A stretch of 64,000 nucleotides of DNA from an uncultured archaeon (GTDB lineage: Archaea > Aenigmatarchaeota > Aenigmatarchaeia > CG10238-14 > SCSR01). Made by a program: the position numbers and the translations under genes. A model generated the notes under the pieces. It was not told where the DNA came from and made no database searches. It was given only the letters and a program-made list of their open reading frames with translations. Position 1 is the stretch's first letter. Each line of letters starts with the position of its first letter. Below, piece by piece: positions 1 to 61,231 of this stretch. Location: positions 14,925 through 78,924 of the forward strand of contig CAZIJH010000004.1 in NCBI GenBank assembly GCA_964539655.1, given 5' to 3'.

Positions 1-140
1 GGAAAATAATTGTTCTCGGGCCCCAACAAGGTTTCGCCGATGAACTTTGCAAGCCCCGAAAAAATGGCGCCAAAAATTATCACGGCAATCGAAATTATGA
101 TTGCGATAGTTTTTATCGGCAGGCTTGGCAGTTTTGCCAT
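1..140 (-). CDS. hypothetical membrane protein, N-terminal part (continues beyond the window start)
   Basis: ATG at 138-140 on the minus strand opens MAKLPSLPIKTIAIIISIAVIIFGAIFSGLAKFIGETLLG..., a hydrophobic signal/TM segment. Reading frame runs off the window edge. Confidence 0.3.
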   Translation of the reverse strand, partial: MAKLPSLPIKTIAIIISIAVIIFGAIFSGLAKFIGETLLGPENNYF

Positions 141-279
141 GAAAATAATTGCTTCTCGGATAGCTTAAAATGATGAGCCAAAATAATCGATTCTAAAAAT
201 TGTTGTTATCGTTATATGTCATCACTTCGGTGACAGAGAACGCTATTTAACGATTTTTACGAACTTCTTTCCGATGTAA

Positions 280-431
280 ATGGGAATACTGACGTTTGTC
301 GTAGCCGTGATTCTGATTATATGGCTGCTGGGATTTGTTGCAAATATTGTCGGCGGCCTCATCCACATATTGCTCGTCATTGTTGTAGTGATTGTCATAA
401 TCAGGCTGCTTAGAGGGGAAAAGATTTTCTG
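280..431 (+). CDS. small hydrophobic membrane protein (lmo0937-like family, 50 aa)
   Basis: ORF not in the supplied track (<60 aa): MGILTFVVAVILIIWLLGFVANIVGGLIHILLVIVVVIVIIRLLRGEKIF. Pattern xIWLLGFxxxxxGGLIHxLLVxAxxxxIxxLxxGR matches the widespread lmo0937-type small membrane proteins, by recollection. Confidence 0.5.
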
Positions 432-434
432 AAG

Positions 435-650
435 GTGTCTGACATGTCTTTCTTCCGATATTTTTCCAATAGGAATATGCTGGCGTCCAGTTCCGAGTCC
501 AAAAGATCTTCCAGAAGAGCCTACCATCCTCCGTACAGCTGCCTGGGATGTAACTTGTATTTCGAGACAGAGTACCTTCTTAATTTGCACAAGGAACTAC
601 AGCATGGCAAACCGAGGAAGAGGAAAGAAGAATTCCAATATTCCAAATAG
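435..650 (+). CDS. small C2H2-type zinc-finger protein
   Basis: YSCLGCNLYFETEYLLNLHKELQH has exact C-x2-C-x12-H-x4-H spacing, followed by a basic tail (KPRKRKEE). Preferred over the overlapping 243..590 minus-strand ORF. Confidence 0.4.
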   Translation: MSDMSFFRYFSNRNMLASSSESKRSSRRAYHPPYSCLGCNLYFETEYLLNLHKELQHGKPRKRKEEFQYSK

Positions 651-767
651 GCTTTTATCCGAACGACACCAATTAGAATTGCCTTGCTCTAAAGCCTCTG
701 TTAAGTTTGCGAAAGCTTGCAGTGAGACAGAAGAACGGAGCGAGGCTATATTATTTTTAAAAAAATT

Positions 768-1316
768 TCATTTGGCAGCAACGTAAATTTTTCTCGGCCA
801 CTCTCCTCTGTCTGCTGGATCGTAAGGCAGTCCGCCACCTATGAAATGAGTTCTAACCTCGCACTTTTCAGCCGTTTCCAAGAGTGCCTTGTCAAACGAG
901 ACTATCGGCAACTTTTCATATTTGGCATGTAGGATCAATATTCTGTCAATCCTGCTTATCGGGTATTTTTCCAATTCTCTTCTCAGATCGCGTACGCCAA
1001 AATGATAATCGTTGTCGTGGTTCTGTTCGCAAGATACGAATCTGACAGAAGGATTGTCTAGCAAATTTTCCATTTTCTTTATATTTCCTCGTCTGTTAAG
1101 CAGTATGAGCTCCTGTAAATTTTCAGAATAGATTGTTTTCATCACGTTTGATTTCAGCCATTTTACGATTTTATTTCGGCTTATGTTCCAAAGAATGATT
1201 CGAGGTTCATTCAAGCCGTACATTATGACAGAAGTGTCGACTGCGTAGCCCTTTTCCAAATTTTTTTGGAGGGTCCTTGACAGTTTCGCTTTTTTCATCT
1301 CGCTGTAAATTGCCAT
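768..1316 (-). CDS. PIN-domain protein (putative nuclease)
   Basis: N-terminal VDTSVIM (first acidic residue) and C-terminal IVSFDKALLETAEK (the hhT/S-xD motif) are typical of PIN domains. Confidence 0.45.
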   Translation of the reverse strand: MAIYSEMKKAKLSRTLQKNLEKGYAVDTSVIMYGLNEPRIILWNISRNKIVKWLKSNVMKTIYSENLQELILLNRRGNIKKMENLLDNPSVRFVSCEQNHDNDYHFGVRDLRRELEKYPISRIDRILILHAKYEKLPIVSFDKALLETAEKCEVRTHFIGGGLPYDPADRGEWPRKIYVAAK

Positions 1317-1498
1317 CGATTATAAAAATATTTTAAGAGATTTAAGCTCCTTTAACGGACGCCGAAAATGTCGAGTATGAAGGAGATGAAAGCCGGCAGT
1401 CCCGAAGATATCGGATCATGTCCGCTGTTCTCCTAGGAGAAAATATAAAATGTTTTTTCATCGTTTGCCTGATCGGTCGTTCCCAATGAAAATCCTTG

Positions 1499-1798
1499 TT
1501 AAACTGTAATGTCAGGTTTCTCTTTTTTCCTGTAAAGAAAGCCGGATTTTTGCTCGATTGCCACAATGCCGTATTCTCCCAGTTTGTCTTGGGATCTGAT
1601 TTTTTGTAAAGTTGCCCTTACAATAGCCGGGTCGGCGCCTTCTATTGATCTGATAATGTCGATGCTTTTTACAGTTTTCCCCTGTCCGGTGAGTTCCACC
1701 AGCTTGTTGAAGACTTTTGTCTGTAACTGGTATTCCTTGCTCGCCGCCGATCTTTTCGATTGCAGTGCGAATTTCCTCTCGATCGCTTCCAAATACAA
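1499..1798 (-). CDS. hypothetical protein (possible winged-helix)
   Basis: 99-aa ORF, no recognisable motifs. Confidence 0.35.
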   Translation of the reverse strand: MYLEAIERKFALQSKRSAASKEYQLQTKVFNKLVELTGQGKTVKSIDIIRSIEGADPAIVRATLQKIRSQDKLGEYGIVAIEQKSGFLYRKKEKPDITV

Positions 1799-1837
1799 AT
1801 TTACCGGACAGAGAAAATTTTCGACTTTCTCTTCTAA

Positions 1838-2086
1838 CTAATCTTTAATAAGAAAGTCAATTCCATTTTCGTCAAACTCGTGCGCAATTTCGTTTGAAAG
1901 TCTCGAGCGCTGGGCGTTTAAAATAGAGTACGCTCCTTCTAAATAATGCGGAAGACCCATGCTCCTCAACAGGGGTTCGTAATTTTTAATTTTCTTTTCG
2001 ACTTGGGCGACTGAGTTTTGCAGAGAAAAATTAATTCGTTTGGATACCTCTTCTTTTACGACCTCGTTCCTCTTGAGTTTTACCAT
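1838..2086 (-). CDS. hypothetical protein
   Basis: 82-aa ORF, codirectional with its neighbours, no motifs recognised. Confidence 0.35.
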   Translation of the reverse strand: MVKLKRNEVVKEEVSKRINFSLQNSVAQVEKKIKNYEPLLRSMGLPHYLEGAYSILNAQRSRLSNEIAHEFDENGIDFLIKD

Positions 2087-2125
2087 GCTTTTTATAAAAA
2101 CAATTAAGGATTAAAACCCGTTGCA

Positions 2126-2833
2126 TCAAACAAACTTCTCAAGACCCGTCTTTGTCTTTTCCGTATCTATCACGACGATTCCCTGGTTCACCGGAAACGA
2201 GACGTTGACAACCGGAACCGAGTCGACGCGCGCCATATTGATTCCTTTGTGCGAATGTCCGTGGACAACAAGATTTGGTTTTCTCTTGATTATGACGTTC
2301 TCGTAAAGGTTGGATCCGAGAGAAGAATAGAAGTTCGGATTCTCTCCCCCGAGCGTCTTGAAAGTCGGCGCGTAATGGATAAGCAGTATTTTGAAGTTGG
2401 TATTCATCTTTTCGAGATTTTTGTCGACCAAATCGATTCTCTCGCGGAAAATATTTCCGATGTTCGGAACATTCGCAAGCTGCCACTGCGTCGGCCTTTC
2501 GAGGCTTCCGGTCGTTCCGAATATCCCGACGGATTTTTTGTTGATTTCAAGAACGGTGCTCTGGTCGTCCAAAAATTTTATCTCGCGGAATTTTCTTCTT
2601 ACCTCTTCCCGGATTTCGTCGAATTCGCTGTTCCCGAAACACGCGACAATCGGGCAGTTTATTTTTCCGAAAAGAGCGTTGTAAATCTTTTCATAATCGT
2701 CGACGCTTCCGCGGTGCACCATGTCTCCGGCCATCAGGAATAAGTCAGGTTTAATTGAGAAATTTTCAACCGCTTGGACGAACTGGTCGTAATATTTTGG
2801 AGAATGAACATCAGAGACAGCCGCAATTATCAT
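2126..2833 (-). CDS. metallophosphoesterase (calcineurin-like phosphoesterase)
   Basis: Motifs AVSDVHS, GDMVHRG, GNSEFD and VHGHSH match the conserved metallophosphoesterase metal-binding motifs. Confidence 0.85.
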   Translation of the reverse strand: MIIAAVSDVHSPKYYDQFVQAVENFSIKPDLFLMAGDMVHRGSVDDYEKIYNALFGKINCPIVACFGNSEFDEIREEVRRKFREIKFLDDQSTVLEINKKSVGIFGTTGSLERPTQWQLANVPNIGNIFRERIDLVDKNLEKMNTNFKILLIHYAPTFKTLGGENPNFYSSLGSNLYENVIIKRKPNLVVHGHSHKGINMARVDSVPVVNVSFPVNQGIVVIDTEKTKTGLEKFV

Positions 2834-2920
2834 TCTATCTATAGTTATTTGTCACGCAGTCGTCTTAACTTTGTGATTTTGGATTATTTATCGTTTAATT
2901 AGAAAATAATTTCGGAAACA

Positions 2921-3661
2921 ATGTTCGAAGGAAAAAACGGCAAGGATCTGTTTTTTGATGAATTCAACCGCAACATATCGCATCTGATCAGCGATCTGAT
3001 AAGAGAAAGCAAATTAGATGACAGACAAGCAAACAATCTTCGAAATTGTTCAAGGTCCATAAGAAGCGCCGCTAAGGCCAATCGCAAGACAAGCAACATT
3101 TTAGCTGCGCGCGCCACGTTGGTGCTGGCTAACAGCTATATTCTAGAAGGATATCATACCTTGACCGAATACAGGCTGAAAAATAGATTCAAGCATGCGA
3201 ATCCTGAATTGGTGACTGATCTTCTTGTAGAAAAAGGAAATGAAATTCAAGTGACGGAAGTTGAGAATGGCGGCGTTGCGCCTTACATTAGTTTGCATCC
3301 CAAATGGCACATACAAGAAGAGCTGTATCATGCCGCCCGCCTTGCATCGAAAATCGCCCGTTATAGTGGATACTCGGATGTCTTCAACGTCGGATTGGTT
3401 GCCGCGAGCCCGATAAACCTGAAATTGAAGGACGTTAGGAAATGTATAACATATTTCATGTCGGATTTTTCTTCTCGAAATCAGAAAGACACCGAGGACA
3501 TAAGACGTTTGGCAAATATGCTTTATTCCGAGCCGAAAATCACGTGCAAACAGATATACAATGCCCGCCTTGACGGTATTTTTGAAATAAATTCTATGGA
3601 GCATACGGTCAGGTCGCTGAACGACGAATTGTTTTCCAATGGGGCAACGCAACCCAAATAA
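2921..3661 (+). CDS. hypothetical protein
   Basis: 246-aa ORF with no recognisable motifs. Confidence 0.5.
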   Translation: MFEGKNGKDLFFDEFNRNISHLISDLIRESKLDDRQANNLRNCSRSIRSAAKANRKTSNILAARATLVLANSYILEGYHTLTEYRLKNRFKHANPELVTDLLVEKGNEIQVTEVENGGVAPYISLHPKWHIQEELYHAARLASKIARYSGYSDVFNVGLVAASPINLKLKDVRKCITYFMSDFSSRNQKDTEDIRRLANMLYSEPKITCKQIYNARLDGIFEINSMEHTVRSLNDELFSNGATQPK

Positions 3662-5068: not shown

Positions 5069-5142
5069 GGACCCGTAGCTTAGCCTGGTGGAGCATCCGA
5101 CTGATAATCGGGAGGCCGAGAGTTCAAATCTCTCCGGGTCCA
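5069..5142 (+). tRNA. tRNA-Ile (anticodon GAU)
   Basis: GGACCCGTAGCTTAGCCTGGTGGAGCATCCGACTGATAATCGGGAGGCCGAGAGTTCAAATCTCTCCGGGTCCA has acceptor GGACCCG/CGGGTCC, anticodon loop CTGATAA and T-loop TTCAAAT. Confidence 0.85.
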
Positions 5143-5186
5143 TGACTTATAACTTACGGGAGTAGAGTTCCGGTAGACTACAATAC
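5143..5186 (+). repeat. left-end block of cassette unit 1, homologous to 6348..6391
   Basis: tgacttataacttacgggagtagagttccggtagactacaatac versus taaataacttacgggagtagaatgccgatagaattagtgtatac. Both copies begin immediately after a copy of ctccgggtccat. Confidence 0.5.
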
Positions 5187-5237
5187 TAGAGTCAAAGTTC
5201 GAATGATAATTTTAAGAATATGTATTCTAATTCTTGA

Positions 5238-6206
5238 TTGATGGTGAATATTACTAGCTTTGTTGTCGGTGCGAAGTGTTTTTTCGACGCTGATAAATCA
5301 GGAACAGATTTGGTCCCAAAAATTAATTCACTTATTGCGCAAAAGATGATTGGCAGAGGATTCTCGACAGATGACAATGTTGATTTGTTTCGAGGCATAC
5401 CAACTTTTATGATGCGATTCTACGCTAATCCAACTAAGCATAATCCTCCTCTTGTGATGAGAATTAAGAAGGGTCTCGGCATCATTAATCAGGAGGAATT
5501 AGACGATAAAGTCTTCTTTGATGCATTGAGTAGACTTGTTGATGAGCATCCACATAAGATATCATTCTCGATTAAAATCGGCCAGATTTCCAACAACAGG
5601 AATGGTTACCTGATAAAGATAGAAACTGAACCAGCAATAGTTGCAAAGAAGAGGAATTTGGGAATTGAACCGCGTGTAAATGCTACTCGTTACAACGAAA
5701 TTATCGACTATAACAAGAAACTTGTTCACGAAATAATCAATGAATTGGGGGCAGGCATTCTTGAAGAGCCTAAGGTGCTCGCGCCACTTGATAAGATATT
5801 ACCGGATAATTTGTTTGAAGAAAATTTCATGACAGATTTACCCAGAGAAGTAGCTGAATGTTTAACAGAGGTCAACAAATGTTTTTCGAATGATTGCTAC
5901 ATTGCGTCCTCAATTATGATACGAAAAGCATTGGAAGTTGCCGTTACCAAAAAACTCGATCAAGCGGGTCGGGGAAAGAAATTATTCGATGATAATGGAG
6001 ACGAGATTTCGTTGAAAAGAAAACTCAATCTATTACCAGAAGTTGCTCCCAATATCAAAAAAGATTTGGAAGCAATCAAGATAGTCAAATGGTTCGGAGA
6101 TAAGAGTGCACACAGTCCGAACAATCCTATTTTTGCAAAAGACATAGAACAAAACATCGTGCCGAAGATTAGATATTTCCTGATAAATCTAGGTTTAAAG
6201 AAATAG
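5238..6206 (+). CDS. protein with a C-terminal DUF4145-like domain (defence/Abi-associated domain family)
   Basis: The C-terminal ~110 aa (CYIASSIMIRKALEVAVTKKL...IKIVKWFGDKSAHSP...IVPKIRYFL) resemble DUF4145, which occurs at the C-termini of HsdR and Abi-like proteins. The N-terminal ~200 aa are unknown. Confidence 0.55.
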   Translation: MMVNITSFVVGAKCFFDADKSGTDLVPKINSLIAQKMIGRGFSTDDNVDLFRGIPTFMMRFYANPTKHNPPLVMRIKKGLGIINQEELDDKVFFDALSRLVDEHPHKISFSIKIGQISNNRNGYLIKIETEPAIVAKKRNLGIEPRVNATRYNEIIDYNKKLVHEIINELGAGILEEPKVLAPLDKILPDNLFEENFMTDLPREVAECLTEVNKCFSNDCYIASSIMIRKALEVAVTKKLDQAGRGKKLFDDNGDEISLKRKLNLLPEVAPNIKKDLEAIKIVKWFGDKSAHSPNNPIFAKDIEQNIVPKIRYFLINLGLKK

Positions 6207-6240
6207 AGACAACGCCGACTTCATTGTAATGTGTACATAA

Positions 6241-6347
6241 TTCCGCTAGAATAGCTAACTATTTATTTTTACACACACAATATTTCAAAACAAGCCGCAG
6301 ATTATGGCAAGAGACTTTAACTTAGGGTCGGTAACGCTCCGGGTCCA
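6241..6347 (+). repeat. conserved ~107-nt right-end block of cassette unit 1, ending in a copy of the tRNA-Ile 3' terminus
   Basis: attccgctagaatagctaactatttatttttac...atatttcaaaacaagcc.cagatt...ttaact.gggtcgg.aac.ctccgggtcca is near-identical to 6877..6984. The last 11 nt equal tRNA-Ile positions 5132-5142. Confidence 0.7.
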
Positions 6348-6391
6348 TAAATAACTTACGGGAGTAGAATGCCGATAGAATTAGTGTATAC
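6348..6391 (+). repeat. left-end block of cassette unit 2, homologous to 5143..5186
   Basis: See 5143..5186. Confidence 0.5.
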
Positions 6392-6437
6392 AAAAATAGT
6401 TGATTGCTTTATTAAGAGAAGTTTTTAAAAATTTAAT

Positions 6438-6845
6438 ATGGTAGATAGACAGAATATTAAACTCAATAATTTGATGTTTCTTGCTCTTGACCATGGTATA
6501 GATTCGATAAAAGCAGGTGGTCCATTAATATCTTTTGTAATTACAGAATCTAAAGGTAAACGCAATATCAAACGATTTGTGACCAAAAGATTAGAAGATG
6601 GTCAAAAAGAAGCAACACAATTTGTTTCTACATCAAAATCTAAAATAGACAGATACGCACTTGCTTATGACGGCTATGTAACAATAGAAAATAAAAAGTA
6701 TAGTGCTATAATTGTTCGGGCAGGAGAGCACGGAGATAAAGAATCAATGTTGATATGTCAAAGATATAGCCCAAAAAAATTTCTACACAAATTTGAAGTA
6801 ATAGGTAATCCAGCAATGATTGGAAATCAAAAAAATCTTCTTTAA
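6438..6845 (+). CDS. hypothetical protein (cargo of cassette unit 2)
   Basis: 135-aa ORF with no recognisable motif, lying between the repeat blocks. Confidence 0.45.
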   Translation: MVDRQNIKLNNLMFLALDHGIDSIKAGGPLISFVITESKGKRNIKRFVTKRLEDGQKEATQFVSTSKSKIDRYALAYDGYVTIENKKYSAIIVRAGEHGDKESMLICQRYSPKKFLHKFEVIGNPAMIGNQKNLL

Positions 6846-6876
6846 ATTATTCTTTACACGAATGTGTGTGAATGAC

Positions 6877-6984
6877 ATTCCGCTAGAATAGCTAACTATT
6901 TATTTTTACGCGGCCAATATTTCAAAACAAGCCACAGATTTGTCGCGGAGAGCTTAACTTTGGGTCGGCAACACTCCGGGTCCA
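6877..6984 (+). repeat. second copy of the ~107-nt block, ending in ctccgggtcca
   Basis: Direct repeat of 6241..6347, again terminated by the 11-nt tRNA-Ile 3' end (6974-6984). Confidence 0.7.
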
Positions 6985-7228: not shown

Positions 7229-7894
7229 TCATTTGCCCGACAATGTGTAGTTCTTTTTCGGAATCATTTCTAATCTTCTATTTAAAACGTATCTGGCATT
7301 CCTTTTTGCTTTCTTGCTAGATGTGCTCGGCTGATTCATCGTCTCAGTTAAAAATCTCAAATCAATTAGATACGGCATCTTATTCGTGTCAGACTTTAAT
7401 GGCATACATAAAGTCAAAATTAGTAGCCTGCTTGAAATTGTCGGCATCGCAAAAATTTCAAAATCAGCCGCGCATTTTCCAAATTCCCTTTCCGTGTTAA
7501 TCTTTCCGTGAATGTAGACGTCATCGGCTGTTCCGAGATAGATAGCGGGTTTTGCCTCCATCATTTTGATGTTATTGTTGTCGTATATTCTGTGCTGCGG
7601 AGATTGGTTCCTGAGATAATCTATCCTCCAAGAATAGTCTGCGTCCATTTCTCTGTTGGAGAAGCAGCTGTAAACGTCTTCCGGATTTGCCGGGAATCTT
7701 ACAGACATCAATTTTTTCGAAGATTCGTCCGCATTTCTATACATCTTCATTATTCTGTGCGCAGGAGGAACCTCCCGAAAAAGTGATTCTACCATGTTTG
7801 CGGGCAATTTTATTGCATCTATGATCTTTGCGACTTTCATGCGATTCAAAATAAATCCGAATTGAAAAAATTTAAGCAACAATGTTATGGTCAT
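7229..7894 (-). CDS. hypothetical protein co-oriented with and abutting the Ku/ligase genes
   Basis: 221 aa, end-to-end with the ligase gene. No LigD polymerase or phosphoesterase motif could be recognised by eye. Confidence 0.45.
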   Translation of the reverse strand: MTITLLLKFFQFGFILNRMKVAKIIDAIKLPANMVESLFREVPPAHRIMKMYRNADESSKKLMSVRFPANPEDVYSCFSNREMDADYSWRIDYLRNQSPQHRIYDNNNIKMMEAKPAIYLGTADDVYIHGKINTEREFGKCAADFEIFAMPTISSRLLILTLCMPLKSDTNKMPYLIDLRFLTETMNQPSTSSKKAKRNARYVLNRRLEMIPKKNYTLSGK

Positions 7895-8892
7895 TTGAAT
7901 GAAACTTCTTCCAAATTTTCATCGAGCGTGCATTCTTCTGGCAGCTTGTCCGTCCTTAATCTTTTGAAGGAAGGTGCCCTGAATTTCAGATTCCTGTTCA
8001 GGTGCAAAAATTCAACTTCGGCGACCAGTTCGGGCCTAACCCATTTCGTCTTGCTCAGGATGGAAGGTATTTCTTGGATTGGCTGGTCACCGAACGGATT
8101 TTTATCCGTCTCCAAATTTCTGACCTTGTCGGATATCGCGGAGTATCCCTGCTCGTCCAGTCCTGTGCCCACCCGGCCGAGATAGTGAAACTTCCTTTTG
8201 AAAAAAATTGCGCACAGCAGGGCCCCGAAGTATTTCGCCCGCCATCCTTCTCCTCTTGTGTACCCGACTATCACGCAATCGAGCGTCCGCAGAGTCTTGA
8301 ATTTTTTCCAGTCATTGGAACGTCGTCCTGTCTGGTAGCTCGAATCGATGCGCTTCGCCATCACTCCCTCGAAATTTTTCTCCTTTGCCAGTTTGAACAA
8401 TTTTTTCCCTTCGCCGAAAACGTGGAAAGATATCAGGAATATTTTGTTCGCTACTACTGTTTCCTGGAGGATTTTTTTCCTTTCCAAAATCGGAAGATCG
8501 GTCAAGTCCTTTCCGTCCTTGTGCAGAATGTCGAAGACGACATAAGTCGCTGGATAGATTTTGGACATCAGCTCTATCCTTGTCCTGTCTCCCGTAAGCT
8601 CCCTGCTCGCAAGCAATGAGAAATCGGGCTTCCCGTTTTTGAAAACTACTATCTCTCCGTCGAGGATGACGCGCTTTGCGTTTATGTCCTTCCATATGTT
8701 TTTGAATTCCGGATACCTTCCCTCGAAATAGTTGAACCTCCTGTTCAGCAGTTTGAGCGACTTGTTCTCCGTATCGATGTAGCTGATCGTCCTCGTGCCG
8801 TCGAACTTCAGCTCGAAAATGAATTTCTCGTCGTCGAACGGCTTTGAAATAAATGCCAGCATCGGTTTTATTTCTTGCCCCCACAGCGACAT
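7891..8892 (-). CDS. ATP-dependent DNA ligase (LigD-like ligase domain)
   Basis: Motif I ELKFDGTR (KxDGxR adenylation lysine), an OB-domain region, and a length typical of stand-alone LigD ligase domains. The track ORF starts at a TTG (8904); the first ATG gives MSLWGQ at 8892. Confidence 0.8.
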   Translation of the reverse strand: MSLWGQEIKPMLAFISKPFDDEKFIFELKFDGTRTISYIDTENKSLKLLNRRFNYFEGRYPEFKNIWKDINAKRVILDGEIVVFKNGKPDFSLLASRELTGDRTRIELMSKIYPATYVVFDILHKDGKDLTDLPILERKKILQETVVANKIFLISFHVFGEGKKLFKLAKEKNFEGVMAKRIDSSYQTGRRSNDWKKFKTLRTLDCVIVGYTRGEGWRAKYFGALLCAIFFKRKFHYLGRVGTGLDEQGYSAISDKVRNLETDKNPFGDQPIQEIPSILSKTKWVRPELVAEVEFLHLNRNLKFRAPSFKRLRTDKLPEECTLDENLEEVSFK

Positions 8893-8907
8893 TATAATCA
8901 ACAAAAA

Positions 8908-9699
8908 TTATTTTTTCCTTTTCTTTTTCGCGGATTCTACGCTGATCTTCAATGCCTCCATCAGATTCTTAGTCTCTGCAACCTTCTCTTCCTTGTACGC
9001 GAAAATCCTGCCTTCTGATTTTGCCTTTATCAAATCCTTCAACGCTTTTGTGTATGCGTCATTGAATCTTGACGCATCGAAATTTTCAACCACCAAATTT
9101 TCAACCAGCATCTTCGCGAGATCGAGTTCCTCTTTTTTTGTCTGGACCAATTCCTGAAGTTCCGGCAGCTCGTTGATGTTTCTGAGCTCGTCCGCGTAAT
9201 GCAGGATGTGCATGACAAGCCCGTTCTTGTACGGCCTCAGGGAAATGATGTATTCCTTGTCCCTCATCACGACTTTTCCGATCGCCGCCTTGTTTGTCAG
9301 CCTCATGACTTCGATGAAAAGCGAGTAGGCTTTTTCGCCCTGTTTGTCAGGCACGACATAATAAGATTTCTCGAAAAATATTGGATCTATCTGAGATACG
9401 TCAACGAATTCCTGCACGTCGATCATTTTTGTGGTCTTCGGCTTGACCTTCTGTATGTCATCCCTGCTTACGGCGACTATTTTATCTCTCGTTATCCTGT
9501 ATCCTTTCTCTATTTCGTTCCATTGCACCTCGTGCCCTTCAGGGCACCATCTCTTGTAGCTCAGCTGCTCATGATGCTCCTGACATAGCATGCTGAAATT
9601 TATTCTATTGTCGTCCGCCGCGGCGTACACCCTGACGGGTATTAGAACCATTCCGAATGATATGGAGCCTGTGAAGATCGCCCTCGCCACGTACGACAT
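8908..9699 (-). CDS. ku: Ku protein (non-homologous end joining)
   Basis: AIFTGSISFGMVLIPVRVY is the hallmark Ku N-terminus, with an acidic/basic C-terminal tail. The likely start MSYVARAI is at 9699; the track ORF extends to 9783. Confidence 0.8.
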   Translation of the reverse strand: MSYVARAIFTGSISFGMVLIPVRVYAAADDNRINFSMLCQEHHEQLSYKRWCPEGHEVQWNEIEKGYRITRDKIVAVSRDDIQKVKPKTTKMIDVQEFVDVSQIDPIFFEKSYYVVPDKQGEKAYSLFIEVMRLTNKAAIGKVVMRDKEYIISLRPYKNGLVMHILHYADELRNINELPELQELVQTKKEELDLAKMLVENLVVENFDASRFNDAYTKALKDLIKAKSEGRIFAYKEEKVAETKNLMEALKISVESAKKKRKK

Positions 9700-9802
9700 C
9701 GGCACGATCTTTTTTCCCTGAGCCACCGCTATTAGAGTGATGGAATTCGGATATAAAATTTTTCTTAAAATAAGATGGGACAACGCGTCATTTGATTAAA
9801 TT

Positions 9803-10447
9803 TTATTCTCCGGACCATTCCTGCTGCCTGTCGAATAAGATGTCGTGGTATTCCCAGTACTTGCCTTGCTCGCCGGCGCACTTGCTAGCTTCCGCTGCCT
9901 GGTACGACAGCTTGTGGAAGTTCAGCGGGAAATCCCTGTAATAGATTTTCACTTTGCCTTCGTAGTCCTGCAAAATCTGTTTCAACGTCAATTCTGCTTT
10001 CGCGCAGAACGGGCACTGGTAGTCAGAAAATTCAACGATTGTGACGTTTGCATTCGCTGACCCGAGCGGCGGATTCGTTCCTGTCCCTATCTGTGGATTT
10101 GCTGACGGATTCGAGAGTTCCGAATCGATTATTGATTTGAAATTTTCCAAAGGAACCGCGCCGACAAGATTTTTTCCGTTGATGAAAAATGTCGGGGTGC
10201 CTTCCACTCCATATGATTTCCCGTCACTGATATCGCTCTGTATTTCGGAATTGTATTTGTTTGTTGTCAGGCAAGTGCTGAATTGGTCTACGTCAAGTCC
10301 GAGTTCGCTTGCATACTGCCCGAATTTTGGAGAGATGACTGCGGGCTTCTGCTGCTGAAGTAAAAAGTATCCGCTGACGATTATCGTTAACAATATTAGT
10401 AATCCGACGTAGTGCTGGATTTTCAATTTCATTTTATCAATACTCAT
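9803..10447 (-). CDS. DsbA-like thiol:disulfide oxidoreductase, membrane-anchored, apparently circularly permuted
   Basis: N-terminal TM anchor. Then come the C-terminal-type DsbA elements (ELGLDVDQF...GVEGTPTFFINGK), a Pro/Gly-rich linker, and only then the N-terminal-type element VTIVEFSDYQCPFCAKAE with its CxxC, followed by the start of the helical domain. Confidence 0.75.
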   Translation of the reverse strand: MSIDKMKLKIQHYVGLLILLTIIVSGYFLLQQQKPAVISPKFGQYASELGLDVDQFSTCLTTNKYNSEIQSDISDGKSYGVEGTPTFFINGKNLVGAVPLENFKSIIDSELSNPSANPQIGTGTNPPLGSANANVTIVEFSDYQCPFCAKAELTLKQILQDYEGKVKIYYRDFPLNFHKLSYQAAEASKCAGEQGKYWEYHDILFDRQQEWSGE

Positions 10448-10473
10448 TGACGACGTGCTTGCTTAAATCTTAT

Positions 10474-20061: not shown

Positions 20062-21009
20062 ATGAGAATTATTTTGAAAAAAGGTAAGCAAAAAGAACTG
20101 ATTGATTTAACCAAATCAAAATTATCTTTATCATGGTCAGAATTGGGAAGGCTCCTTGGAATTAAACCCAATTATTTGAGTGGTGATTTGCGATTTGAAA
20201 ATGTCACAATCAGCGATCAATTATATAAAAATTTGTCAAGAATGAGCGATGTTAATTTTGATAATTTCATTGAAAAAAAAGTTCCTAACAATTGGGGGCG
20301 AATAAAAGGAGGGAAGTTATCTACTCATAGACAGCGTCCTCGAAAGTTACTCATTAAACAACATTCTAGTAATCTTGCAGAAGCTATTGGTATAATTTTA
20401 GGTGATGGTAGTTTGTATAACAATAAAAAACATGGAATCAACCAATTAGTTGTAACTGGCCATATCAAAAATGATCAAATATATTTGTCTAAATTTGTGA
20501 AGCCGCTTTTTGAAAATTTGTTTAATTTAAAATTTAGTATTAAAAAAGATAACAAAAAACATGTAATAAGAATTTACAGCCAAAAGAAAGATGTTTTATA
20601 TACTTTAGAAAAACTTGGCATACCGATTGGAAATAAAATAAAGAATGATGTTGGAATACCGAATTGGATATTTTCGTCAAAAGATTTCGTTAAATCATGC
20701 ATACGTGGTATTGTCGACACTGACGGTTCTGTATTCCCAATAACTGGAAGAAACTATACATATGTAGAAATTACATCCGCTTGCAAAAATTTAAGAAAAT
20801 CTATAGACCAAAGCATGAAAATAATTGGATTAAAAACATCCAAATGGACCAAAAATGGAACTCCAAAAATTTATATAGCAAACAAACGAGATATTTCTCG
20901 CTATTACAATGAAGTGGGATTTAATAACCCATATCATAAAAATAGATTTAAGCTCCTATCGTCTAGTCCGGTCAAACAAAGCCGAAAGGACGCCGGGCTT
21001 TCGATCTAA
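20062..21009 (+). CDS. LAGLIDADG homing endonuclease, free-standing, with an N-terminal HTH-like domain
   Basis: Two LAGLIDADG motifs (AIGIILGDGSLY, IRGIVDTDGSVF) spaced ~110 aa apart. The ORF has no stop before 21009, so its last ~19 codons overlap the 5' part of the downstream tRNA. Confidence 0.7.
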   Translation: MRIILKKGKQKELIDLTKSKLSLSWSELGRLLGIKPNYLSGDLRFENVTISDQLYKNLSRMSDVNFDNFIEKKVPNNWGRIKGGKLSTHRQRPRKLLIKQHSSNLAEAIGIILGDGSLYNNKKHGINQLVVTGHIKNDQIYLSKFVKPLFENLFNLKFSIKKDNKKHVIRIYSQKKDVLYTLEKLGIPIGNKIKNDVGIPNWIFSSKDFVKSCIRGIVDTDGSVFPITGRNYTYVEITSACKNLRKSIDQSMKIIGLKTSKWTKNGTPKIYIANKRDISRYYNEVGFNNPYHKNRFKLLSSSPVKQSRKDAGLSI

Positions 21010-29356: not shown

Positions 29357-30037
29357 ATGAATTTTCAAAAAACTGCAGAACTTGCAGAATTTGTGGCTGA
29401 CATTACCGGTGATGGTCATTTGCAATTTAATGAACATCGAGGAAATATTCAATTTACTTCAAAAAATCTATTTTCAATTAAAAATTTTAGAAAACTTTGT
29501 AAAAATTTGTTTGATACCGATACAAAATTAATGAAAATAAAGAAAGACGGCAAATCATTTACGCTTCGATATAGAACATATTTTTCTTCTTTTGCAATTG
29601 CTAGTGAATTAGTAAAATTAGGAGTTCCATTTGGGAACAAAACGAACAAAATTTTTAGTATACCCAATTGGATTTTGAAAGGAAATTCAGAACTCAAGAA
29701 AGCATATTTACGCGCATTCTATACTTGTGAAGGATCAGTTTATTGTACTAAAAATAAAGATAAACTGAGATGGAGGATAGAATTAGAACAATATAAAAAT
29801 GAAAAATTAAAACATAGAGGGAAAATTTTTATGAACCAGATAAAACATTTACTTGGAGATTTTGATGTTATAACATCACCAGTCAGATTTGGAAAGAAAC
29901 AGAAAAGAAAAGACGGATCATCTTCAATTGCATTGAAAATTGATATCGAAAAGTCATCATTTGAAAAATTTGCTAATAACATAGGGTTTAACGATAAGTT
30001 TAAGACTCAAAAATTACTAACTGCAATTGCAGAATAA
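29357..30037 (+). CDS. LAGLIDADG homing endonuclease, free-standing (paralogue of 20062..21009)
   Basis: Motifs VADITGDGHLQ and AFYTCEGSVY. The stop is 3 nt before tRNA-Leu. Confidence 0.7.
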   Translation: MNFQKTAELAEFVADITGDGHLQFNEHRGNIQFTSKNLFSIKNFRKLCKNLFDTDTKLMKIKKDGKSFTLRYRTYFSSFAIASELVKLGVPFGNKTNKIFSIPNWILKGNSELKKAYLRAFYTCEGSVYCTKNKDKLRWRIELEQYKNEKLKHRGKIFMNQIKHLLGDFDVITSPVRFGKKQKRKDGSSSIALKIDIEKSSFEKFANNIGFNDKFKTQKLLTAIAE

Positions 30038-30040
30038 TAT

Positions 30041-30126
30041 GCGGGGGTCAGATAGCCCGGTCAATTCTGCTGGCTTGAGGTGCCAGTCCTTTAGTAGGTA
30101 CGCGAGTTCGAATCTCGCCCCCCGCA
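30041..30126 (+). tRNA. tRNA-Leu (anticodon GAG), long variable arm
   Basis: GCGGGGG...CTGGC-TTGAGGT-GCCAG, a 14-nt variable arm, T-arm GCGAG-TTCGAAT-CTCGC, and acceptor CCCCCGC+A. Confidence 0.8.
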
Positions 30127-60481: not shown

Positions 60482-61231
60482 TTAGTCTTCGCTCACTCTC
60501 GGCGCGAGAACGAACTGCAAGCTCGCCTTGTCTCCGGCCTTGAACGAAAGTTTCATCGGATAGTCTTGTCCAAATTGCAACGAAACAGATTCAGCAATCT
60601 TCGCGGCCTTGATCATTTTCTTCAGGTATTCGAGAGGGTATCTCGATTTTATTTCTCCGTTTGACTGCAGACTCAATAAGGATCCGTTTCCGGTTTCCAA
60701 TTCTAATTCCGCCCTGCTCACGTCGCCTTCCGCGCGCATCGTGAACTTTGTAGGAGAAGTTTGGAACATTACAGAATCGGCGACAATCTCCGCGTCGTCA
60801 AGACCCGATTGAATTACGTCGGGTTTCAATTCAGACTTGACCGCGAACTCTAACTGGTCGACAGGAGGAACTTCTTCCTGGCTGATGTCCAGAATAGGAA
60901 CGACGAATTTTCTTTTGCTCTGTCCGGAAATCTCGACCTGCATCTTGTTGTCCTGCAGATTCAATGTGAGTTTGTCTTTCCCGGTCGCGCGCTTCAGAAC
61001 CGATAAAAAATTTCCAATATTCAGGCCGATTGACTTGTCTTCGTCAATCTCGTAAGTTTCGAACGCGCTCGAAAAAATCCTGAAATCGACTACCGCCACC
61101 ATCGCGCGGTCCGCGGCGACAAGAGATATTCCTTCTTTTGAAACCTTGAAAAGTCCCTCGTCAATGAGCTCTGCTATCGAGGAAATAGAATCCGTCAATA
61201 ATGCGGGATTTGCGAGAGTTGCCTTGAACAT
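60482..61231 (-). CDS. pcn: DNA polymerase sliding clamp (PCNA)
   Basis: 249 aa. The N-terminus MFKATLANPALLTDSISSIAELIDEGLFKVSKEGISLVAADRAMVAVV is typical of archaeal PCNA. Confidence 0.85.
   Translation of the reverse strand: MFKATLANPALLTDSISSIAELIDEGLFKVSKEGISLVAADRAMVAVVDFRIFSSAFETYEIDEDKSIGLNIGNFLSVLKRATGKDKLTLNLQDNKMQVEISGQSKRKFVVPILDISQEEVPPVDQLEFAVKSELKPDVIQSGLDDAEIVADSVMFQTSPTKFTMRAEGDVSRAELELETGNGSLLSLQSNGEIKSRYPLEYLKKMIKAAKIAESVSLQFGQDYPMKLSFKAGDKASLQFVLAPRVSED

Follow-up and report, generated by a model that had tools for sequence, protein, structure and literature searches.

The open reading frame (ORF) at positions 5241-6206 of the window (i.e., the whole 64,000-nucleotide stretch of archaeal DNA that was analysed) probably encodes, at a probability that we put at about 0.6, a stand-alone abortive-infection (Abi) effector in which an N-terminal sensor domain is fused to a C-terminal HEPN RNase domain; a role in defence, exerted through the mechanism outlined below, is the best-supported interpretation of the data. 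The HEPN effector domain as well as the design logic of a sensor joined to an effector are already known, while the N-terminal domain has not been described before, the Lys variant of the active site is unusual, the host is archaeal, and the mobile element that carries the gene is unusually minimal. To our knowledge, single-protein HEPN Abi effectors have been studied in bacteria (e.g., RAZR), and archaeal counterparts are hardly known. The findings on the HEPN family that are reported here extend current ideas and overturn none of them.

The gene and its DUF4145/HEPN domain

In the ORF listing, the gene appears as a plus-strand ORF of 322 aa (5238..6206) that opens with TTG-ATG, and the peptides quoted in an earlier, sequence-only reading of this DNA were located in its translation. 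The ATG at 5241 is the probable start because P0001, an identical protein in the database, has a length of 321 aa and homologues align from that Met. The resulting coding sequence (5241..6206, plus strand) specifies 321 aa in two domains, of which the N-terminal one is uncharacterised and the C-terminal one is of the DUF4145/HEPN type, and the protein was identical in three independent sequencing runs. An AT-rich, TATA-like element, ATAATTTTAAGAATATG (5206..5222, plus strand), was found by inspection with its centre ~27 nt upstream of this ATG and could represent a candidate archaeal promoter of a leaderless mRNA.

A first structure model, built with five sequences, reached a pLDDT of 78.6; a model built with an alignment of 85 family sequences (alignment A3) reached a pLDDT of 94.6 and a pTM of 0.77. 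In this high-confidence model, on which our description of the fold is based, residues 1-180 (5241..5780, plus strand) are predicted to fold into an alpha+beta domain (five main strands, accompanied by five to six helices), a linker is predicted for residues 181-193, and residues 194-317 (5820..6191, plus strand) are predicted to form a helical bundle with the all-alpha HEPN fold. Structural matches include HEPN-MNT toxins. Pfam family PF13643 (DUF4145) matches aa 211-305 with an E-value of 1.2e-8 and a score of 35.3 bits (hmmscan; profile positions 2-82 of 88), which is well past chance level, the curated Pfam cut-off for this family being 23.1 bits; a DUF4145 Pfam match is also found in 14 of the 85 family members. 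The sequence-only reading had recognised the C-terminal ~110 aa as DUF4145-like and had proposed a Pfam search, with the absence of a significant DUF4145 match to count against it; since the match is significant, this assignment stands, and the domain identity of the protein is secure. No NCBIfam match was obtained for the 321-aa protein, and its sole PADLOC match was weak and partial (PD-Lambda-5_A, E 0.019).

Anantharaman et al. [quoted passage not shown] The DUF4145 domain of RAZR/PD-T7-4, a defence protein of E. coli, has since been characterised as a divergent HEPN RNase, which cleaves ssRNA once assembled on phage proteins and in which the R-x7-H site (R146 and H154) is needed for defence as well as for ssRNA cleavage (Nature 2026, PMC13017515). 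With regard to the view that DUF4145 is typical of restriction and abortive-infection proteins, which the sequence-only reading had taken, the match is thus genuine, while the domain is not merely restriction-associated and is better described as a divergent HEPN RNase domain.

Metal-independent endoribonuclease activity is a defining property of the HEPN superfamily, whose domains usually act in dimeric or oligomeric form, the active site being a composite one. Among the 85 aligned family members, the catalytic His is kept (as H291) in 80, with gaps in 4 others, E232 is found in 70 and is replaced by Asp in 8 more, and R228 is present in 59. The catalytic Arg is absent from the window protein, which has Lys at position 283, as do all ten full-length members of its close clade (the close-clade alignment comprises 12 sequences, two of which are truncated and lack the motif region); across the 85 family members, column 283 holds K in 20, S in 13, R in 9, and a gap in 20. 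The motifs S[IV]M[IL]RKxxE and VKW[FLY]GDxxAH recur in the five closest sequences as well as in the ten full-length clade members. Based on column counts and alignments, the segment K283-W-F-G-D-K-S-A-H291 (6087..6113, plus strand) is the counterpart of the catalytic R-x7-H motif of DUF4145/RAZR, with Lys in place of Arg; K283 sits eight residues before H291, a spacing equal to that between R146 and H154 in RAZR. Selection on H291 is clear in the family, and the presence of VKWxGDxxAH in 10 of 10 full-length close-clade members argues for purifying selection on the site. Because the HEPN Arg is replaced by Lys in the clade, and because the Arg position is not conserved family-wide, RNase activity of the window protein is uncertain.

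The N-terminal domain and its modular family

The N-terminal ~200 aa had resembled nothing recognisable in the sequence-only reading, and indeed belong to no Pfam, NCBIfam, or PADLOC family. Structure prediction, which that reading had recommended for this part of the protein, yielded the alpha+beta domain described above; comparison of this domain with the PDB and with viral structure models identified no significant structural relative, and a sequence search of the PDB with the family profile gave nothing meaningful. A word-indexed search found only four relatives, and an exhaustive HMMER search with a profile of the N-domain alone (A2) identified, at E<=1e-3, representatives of 102 clusters. 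Almost all of them are 300-340 aa long, and the layout in two domains is thus fixed. The best-conserved positions of the N-domain across the family are Pro104, Pro131, Pro177, Leu96, and Gly122, with no glutamate among them.

The C-terminal domains that accompany this N-domain are of several kinds. The clade of the window protein carries the Lys-variant DUF4145 domain; a second, large class is marked by LTDLRxALE...YLSDKPVH[KG]RE, in which the His is present and the Arg absent; and a third class has the canonical Rx4H motif in the form ERRW[IM]AHH. In addition, P0070 ends in a canonical DUF4145 R-x7-H motif (RQNANAEAH), and the C-terminus of P0053 is a strong match to Hypoth_Ymh (E 6.7e-31). 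A constant N-terminal module on swappable effectors is a hallmark of sensor-effector Abi proteins. Given that one N-domain is paired here with interchangeable effector domains, we infer from the architecture a sensing or regulatory role for the N-domain.

A similar arrangement has been described by Anantharaman et al. (PMC3710099) for AbiJ and AbiTii, in which one N-domain occurs with interchangeable effector domains; AbiTii consists of an alpha+beta domain of ~180 aa that is fused to c2405 and occasionally to Ymh, with c2405 representing a DUF4145-like HEPN domain with a conserved His and no Arg. The family of the window protein thus resembles AbiTii-c2405 and AbiJ in that an N-terminal alpha+beta domain (of ~100-180 aa in those proteins) is placed on alternative HEPN types, including H-only and Ymh types. 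For a direct comparison, c2405 of E. coli CFT073 was located as C_RS11400 (L045, 17575-18744, minus strand), a protein that has HHH_3 at its C-terminus and matches DUF4145 weakly. In hhalign, alignment A3 matched the c2405 family alignment (A6; 21 members) with a probability of 0.33% and the single c2405 sequence with a probability of 0.27%; homology between the N-domain and AbiTii was rejected, as no profile-profile relation was detectable despite the similar architecture. Pfam negatives are uninformative on this point, since Pfam names no AbiTii family even for c2405.

In one soil lineage (L007, L027-29), the gene is present as a frameshifted copy of 248 aa; L007 is a MAG titled Crenarchaeota archaeon. 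No homologues were found in IMG/VR, INPHARED (GenBank phages), or the BFVD structures, and a viral origin of the family was rejected on these grounds; a clade-B member had no homologue among plasmids. As a side observation, the C-terminus of P0099 is not of the HEPN type and contains an HxR...D...G.S motif that recalls HKD/PLD, without Pfam support.

The tRNA-Ile array and the neighbourhoods of homologues

The HEPN gene is the sole ORF of the first of two cassette units that follow a tRNA-Ile(GAT) gene (5069..5142, plus strand; ARAGORN, with an Rfam tRNA score of 68.5 bits). These units, unit 1 (5143-6347; 1.2 kb) and unit 2 (6348-6984; 0.64 kb), have homologous left and right ends and contain one ORF each, the two ORFs being unrelated. 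The last 11 nt of the tRNA-Ile gene (5132-5142, plus strand) form the att core CTCCGGGTCCA on the attL side of the array, and this core is found at 5132, 6337, and 6974, i.e., in three copies versus 0 expected by chance. A left-end repeat, ATAACTTACGGGAGTAGA..., which was identified by repeat search at 90% identity (family D5) and by junction alignment, is shared by unit 1 (5149..5177, plus strand) and unit 2 (6351..6379, plus strand); an 18-nt left-end block is present in two copies versus 0.04 expected. The right-end repeat of unit 1 (6240..6347, plus strand; 108 nt; repeat families D1 and D4) ends in the core copy at 6337-6347, and that of unit 2 (6877..6984, plus strand) ends in the core copy at 6974-6984, on the attR side of the array. 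The 108-nt right ends of both units begin with an identical 33-mer (two copies, with a chance expectation of about 0) and include an oligo-T run, located at 6259-6272 in unit 1; three Logan contigs with an identical gene all end 63 nt past the stop codon, inside this 33-nt repeat. The GC content of the cassette region is 0.34-0.38 versus ~0.43 for the window. The tRNA-anchored cassette context proposed in the sequence-only reading is borne out by the three cores and the shared unit ends, and its proposal of a single-gene module fits with the one ORF of unit 1 and with the lack of a conserved neighbour in 38 homologue loci.

The ~46 larger window ORFs scanned include no integrase, and searches of genome, viral, and metagenome contig collections for the right-end repeat together with the att core gave 0 matches each; neither an integrase nor an empty site or excised form of the cassette was thus detected. 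Rfam detected no RNA besides tRNAs, and no direct repeats of the tRNA-Ala 3' end were found left of 4291. An integron-like reading with attC sites was rejected because the right ends have no significant hairpin; in single-strand folding, they fold no better than shuffled sequences (z -0.07 to +1.2). Also unlike integron cassettes, the array has no integrase in the ORFs scanned and a core that is the 3' end of a tRNA. With regard to a split integrase of the SSV type, inspection of the sequence across the att junctions revealed no part of an int gene and only an ORF of 16 codons whose stop lies directly past the core, and this candidate was rejected as well. The array does show the features of integrase-less, att-flanked (CIME-like) elements, in that direct repeats of the core bound units without a recombinase. 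CIME-type cis-mobilisable elements in Streptococcus are integrase-less, att-flanked, and stacked by tandem accretion, and tRNA-linked gene capture is known for archaeal integrative elements. The window units share with CIME-type elements the direct tRNA 3'-end repeats, the absence of a recombinase, ends that are homologous around unlike cargo, and a tandem arrangement at one tRNA gene; what sets them apart is their very small size (1.2 and 0.64 kb), each unit holding just one gene. The simplest reading would be that the array reflects successive site-specific integrations of integrase-less, cis-mobilisable mini-elements, with mobilisation of the units presumably occurring in trans.

Unit 2 carries a coding sequence (6438..6845, plus strand) for a 135-aa protein that belongs to a small family (15 homologues) and has no Pfam match. 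Its closest relative, P0107 (68% identity), is encoded in MAG GCA_964646855.1 as well as in the same sample series, where its gene follows that of a YchF-like GTPase, at a chromosomal, non-tRNA site without the cassette ends found in the window. The sequence-only reading had suggested that this protein may be a partner of the HEPN protein; a role as partner or antitoxin was rejected, given that none of its homologues adjoins a member of the HEPN-gene family in the 38 loci and that its closest relative sits at a non-tRNA site.

The window is archaeal, since its products include PCNA (60482-61231) and a member of DUF1512, which is an archaeal family. The nearest neighbours of the array, i.e., DUF5654, Ku, and ligase genes, are not classical defence genes; the Ku gene and the ATP-dependent ligase gene form a pair right of the array. 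No restriction-modification (R-M) genes were found among the window ORFs scanned. Two free-standing LAGLIDADG ORFs were also observed in low-GC patches of the window.

The surroundings of the homologues are diverse. P0003 (L004) is found with SLFN_AlbA_2, a type I R-M system (hsdM/S/R), and a second DUF4145 gene, and P0004 (L005) in a hypothetical-rich island with HEPN_Swt1 that is followed by type I R-M; in both loci, the type I R-M operons are 1-6 kb from the homologue. P0006 (L008) is accompanied by AbiEi_2 and a 270-aa gene in a small islet flanked by housekeeping genes, the archaeal surroundings consisting of rpS8e, SRP19, Gar1, RNase P p30, and Nre. P0012 (L012) is found with M78/Macro, an AAA/adenylosuccinate-synthase-like protein, NUDIX, and SIR2_2, and P0020, a member of the H-only clade (L042-44), with DpnII R-M and Dam methylase, DUF3800, IS240, and a TIR-WD40 protein. 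A metagenome scan added 25 further loci, and Pfam and PADLOC searches with 33 neighbouring ORFs of metagenome loci identified SLFN_AlbA_2, an OLD/GajA-like ATPase, type II methylases, a tyrosine integrase, and DUF4238. All-against-all BLAST of ORFs found no neighbour gene that was conserved across the 38 loci; two neighbours were recurrent, i.e., a 425-aa SLFN_AlbA_2 protein (L004, L018, L019) and a 113-122-aa protein that is DUF559/Vsr-like by eye only (L012, L018, L019). The gene of P0002, which is 45% identical to the window protein, shares an AT-rich insertion of 3.1 kb at tRNA-Ser(CGA) with a single further gene; this insertion contains no integrase, and the tRNA end is repeated perfectly, over 20 bp, at its borders; the P0002 lineage was seen again in L016. 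The contexts of the homologues are thus patchy, island-borne, variable, and sometimes decaying, which is the pattern of defence genes and unlike that of housekeeping genes, as judged from ~10 independent loci without a statistical background model. Genomic neighbourhoods had been named in the sequence-only reading as a means of telling these two patterns apart, and those recovered here are variable and defence-rich or mobile rather than housekeeping operons.

Proposed mechanism and alternatives

Under the mechanism that we propose, the HEPN gene would be transcribed from its own TATA-like element, and the N-terminal alpha+beta domain of ~180 aa would act as a sensor or autoinhibitory module. 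A viral cue would then lead to activation of the C-terminal DUF4145-type HEPN effector, which would cleave cellular as well as viral RNA and thereby stop growth of the infected cell. A tyrosine recombinase whose gene lies elsewhere would be responsible for integrating or mobilising unit 1 itself. In this scheme, we infer the RNase activity, the trigger by infection, and the sensor role of the N-domain.

The window protein resembles RAZR/PD-T7-4 in being a single polypeptide with a C-terminal HEPN domain of the DUF4145 type, and the N-terminal module of RAZR, which is non-catalytic, is linked to its activation by phage proteins. RAZR, however, is about half the size and has a Cys4 zinc-ribbon as its N-domain in place of the ~180-aa alpha+beta domain found here, and the window protein differs further in its Lys for the catalytic Arg and in its archaeal host. 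It has no Cys4 zinc-ribbon and, in PADLOC, no match to the PD-T7-4 model, the two features by which members of the RAZR group would be recognised. Type I HsdR subunits and REases with a C-terminal DUF4145 domain share the same Pfam domain, and R-M operons are found at some of the homologue loci; unlike these enzymes, the window protein is stand-alone and contains no HSDR_N, helicase, ResIII, or REase domain. Finally, HEPN-MNT systems are characterised by an adjacent minimal nucleotidyltransferase gene; there is no such gene beside the HEPN gene, unit 1 consisting of a single ORF.

Other functions were weighed against that of an Abi effector. HEPN domains are frequent as toxins of toxin-antitoxin (TA) systems, and a HEPN toxin could stabilise the cassette through post-segregational killing, with the N-domain or an unrecognised RNA as antitoxin. 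This frequency, the HEPN-MNT toxins among the structural matches, the small mobile unit on which the gene travels, and the AbiE-type TA component that adjoins the homologue in L008 are all consistent with an addiction module. We nevertheless regard such a module as unlikely, since unit 1 contains no second ORF or MNT-like gene and, as far as Rfam detects, no RNA besides tRNAs, no conserved partner is found in the 38 loci, and most homologues are located in islands that are not demonstrably mobile; a constant N-domain with varied effectors also suits a sensor better than an antitoxin. About equally improbable, in our judgement, is a catalytically inactive HEPN-like scaffold, which would act as a decoy, regulator, or adaptor (as does MtlR) and would not cleave RNA. 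The Lys that replaces the catalytic Arg throughout the clade and the variable Arg position in the family point in this direction, as do the DUF4145-like c2405, which has no Arg, and the non-catalytic MtlR (PMC3710099). On the other hand, His291 is near-invariant over ~80 divergent sequences, along with E232 and R228, Lys is a conservative and invariant substitution, and sister clades with the same N-domain carry the canonical Rx4H or R-x7-H motifs, which argues that the common function of the family is catalytic.

An accessory subunit that is active only with an R-M complex would explain why type I R-M systems are found within 1-6 kb of the homologues in L004 and L005 and a DpnII R-M system in L042, and would agree with the fusions of DUF4145 to REase and helicase modules (PMC3710099); however, no R-M gene is present in the window ORFs scanned or in L006, L008, and L012, and the nearby R-M systems vary in type and have no fixed adjacent order, so that we consider this function very improbable. 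We assign a similarly low likelihood to a decaying passenger, i.e., a non-functional ORF left behind in an integrated element that is itself dead. The absence of an integrase from the unit and the frameshifted copy in one soil lineage would fit such decay; however, the window ORF is intact, full length, and identical in the three sequencing runs, and the residues that are conserved family-wide are kept in the window protein.

A defence effector with a sensor N-domain, the reading that we prefer, may tentatively be extended to a broader one, which we consider possible and clearly less probable than the function itself. The N-domain could represent an undescribed sensor that defines a new single-protein Abi family of ~100 clusters with four or more kinds of HEPN effector (the Lys-for-Arg variant being one of them), and the array in the window could represent an archaeal, integron-like capture platform that traffics single defence genes. 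Being part of a compact, well-modelled protein, having no known relative, and being reused on several HEPN types, the N-domain is a good candidate for a new viral-sensing domain; the natural Arg-to-Lys variant provides a probe of how strict the HEPN motif is, and a putative defence gene that is carried alone in a minimal cassette at a tRNA gene is relevant to the assembly of archaeal defence islands. In the data searched here, members of the N-domain family were seen mostly in archaeal or uncultivated lineages.

Single-gene units and insertions at tRNA genes

At the 3' end of the tRNA-Ile(GAT) gene, positions 5069-6984 of the window include a tandem pair of single-gene units of 1.2 kb and 0.64 kb, the first carrying the family gene, i.e., the gene for the 321-aa protein with a C-terminal DUF4145/HEPN domain. 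These units share a homologous left end of approximately 30 nt as well as a homologous right end of 108 nt, and each terminates in the 11-nt tRNA core. Neither unit in this interval encodes an integrase, hairpin formation was not seen in the unit ends, and the end sequence had no match in any searchable collection (i.e., genome, viral, and metagenome contigs).

A separate AT-rich insertion of 3.1 kb was observed at tRNA-Ser(CGA) in locus L006, outside the window (positions 123-3279; also found in L016). Identical 20-bp direct repeats (AATCCCTTCCTCTGCGCCAA) flank this insertion, which contains a homologue with 45% identity to the window protein together with a convergent 301-aa gene, the product of which includes an RNSIGH motif (RNxxxH, HEPN-like); no integrase was found between positions 123 and 3279. 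With regard to the 135-aa cargo of the second tRNA-Ile unit, its closest homologue, P0107 (locus L039), is flanked by a perfect 15-bp inverted repeat (9924-9938 and 10457-10471; arms CGGTTCTGTCGCAAA and TTTGCGACAGAACCG), and P0107 and this repeat adjoin a gene for a YchF-like GTPase in MAG GCA_964646855.1.

Variation in context and architecture of the family gene

At three loci, the family gene is directly followed downstream by a 425-aa SLFN_AlbA_2 (Schlafen-like) gene (L004, 4287-5564; L018, 1616-2893; L019, 4416-4646), with 70% identity between L004 and L018; within one sub-clade, the two genes may form a pair that recurs across loci. One lineage of soil archaea carries the family gene in interrupted form (L007, 9986-10943; also L027, L028, and L029), with an ORF of 248 aa and tblastn similarity that continues to residue 321. 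Because the same 248-aa truncation was found in several samples of this lineage, these data suggest a decaying copy.

Another family member, P0099 (338 aa), retains the conserved N-domain and has a non-HEPN C-terminus, in which the motif LHDRIIID...GHSLKD is reminiscent of HKD/PLD nucleases, without Pfam support for this resemblance. For the "c2405" HEPN family, which has an AbiTii N-domain, the prototype is c2405 of E. coli CFT073 (C_RS11400; L045, 17575-18744). In RefSeq, the annotation of this protein does not go beyond "ComEA family DNA-binding protein"; the Pfam copy used reported HHH_3 and, weakly, DUF4145, and no AbiTii-named family.

Other features of the window

Directly to the right of the tRNA-Ile units, an archaeal NHEJ-type gene string (7229-9783, minus strand) encodes Ku (8908-9783), an ATP-dependent DNA ligase (7891-8904), and a 221-aa ORF that overlaps the ligase ORF (7229-7894; no Pfam match). 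Two free-standing LAGLIDADG_3 ORFs (20062-21009 and 29357-30037) are located in the lowest-GC patches (GC 0.30-0.33), the second ending 4 nt ahead of tRNA-Leu(GAG) at 30041. Finally, to the left of tRNA-Ala, a borderline PIN-domain ORF (768-1316; 23.3 bits versus a cut-off of 23.6) is preceded upstream by two small ORFs with no Pfam match (1499-1798 and 1838-2086), all on the minus strand; this region (768-2086) may represent a TA-like or VapC-like arrangement.
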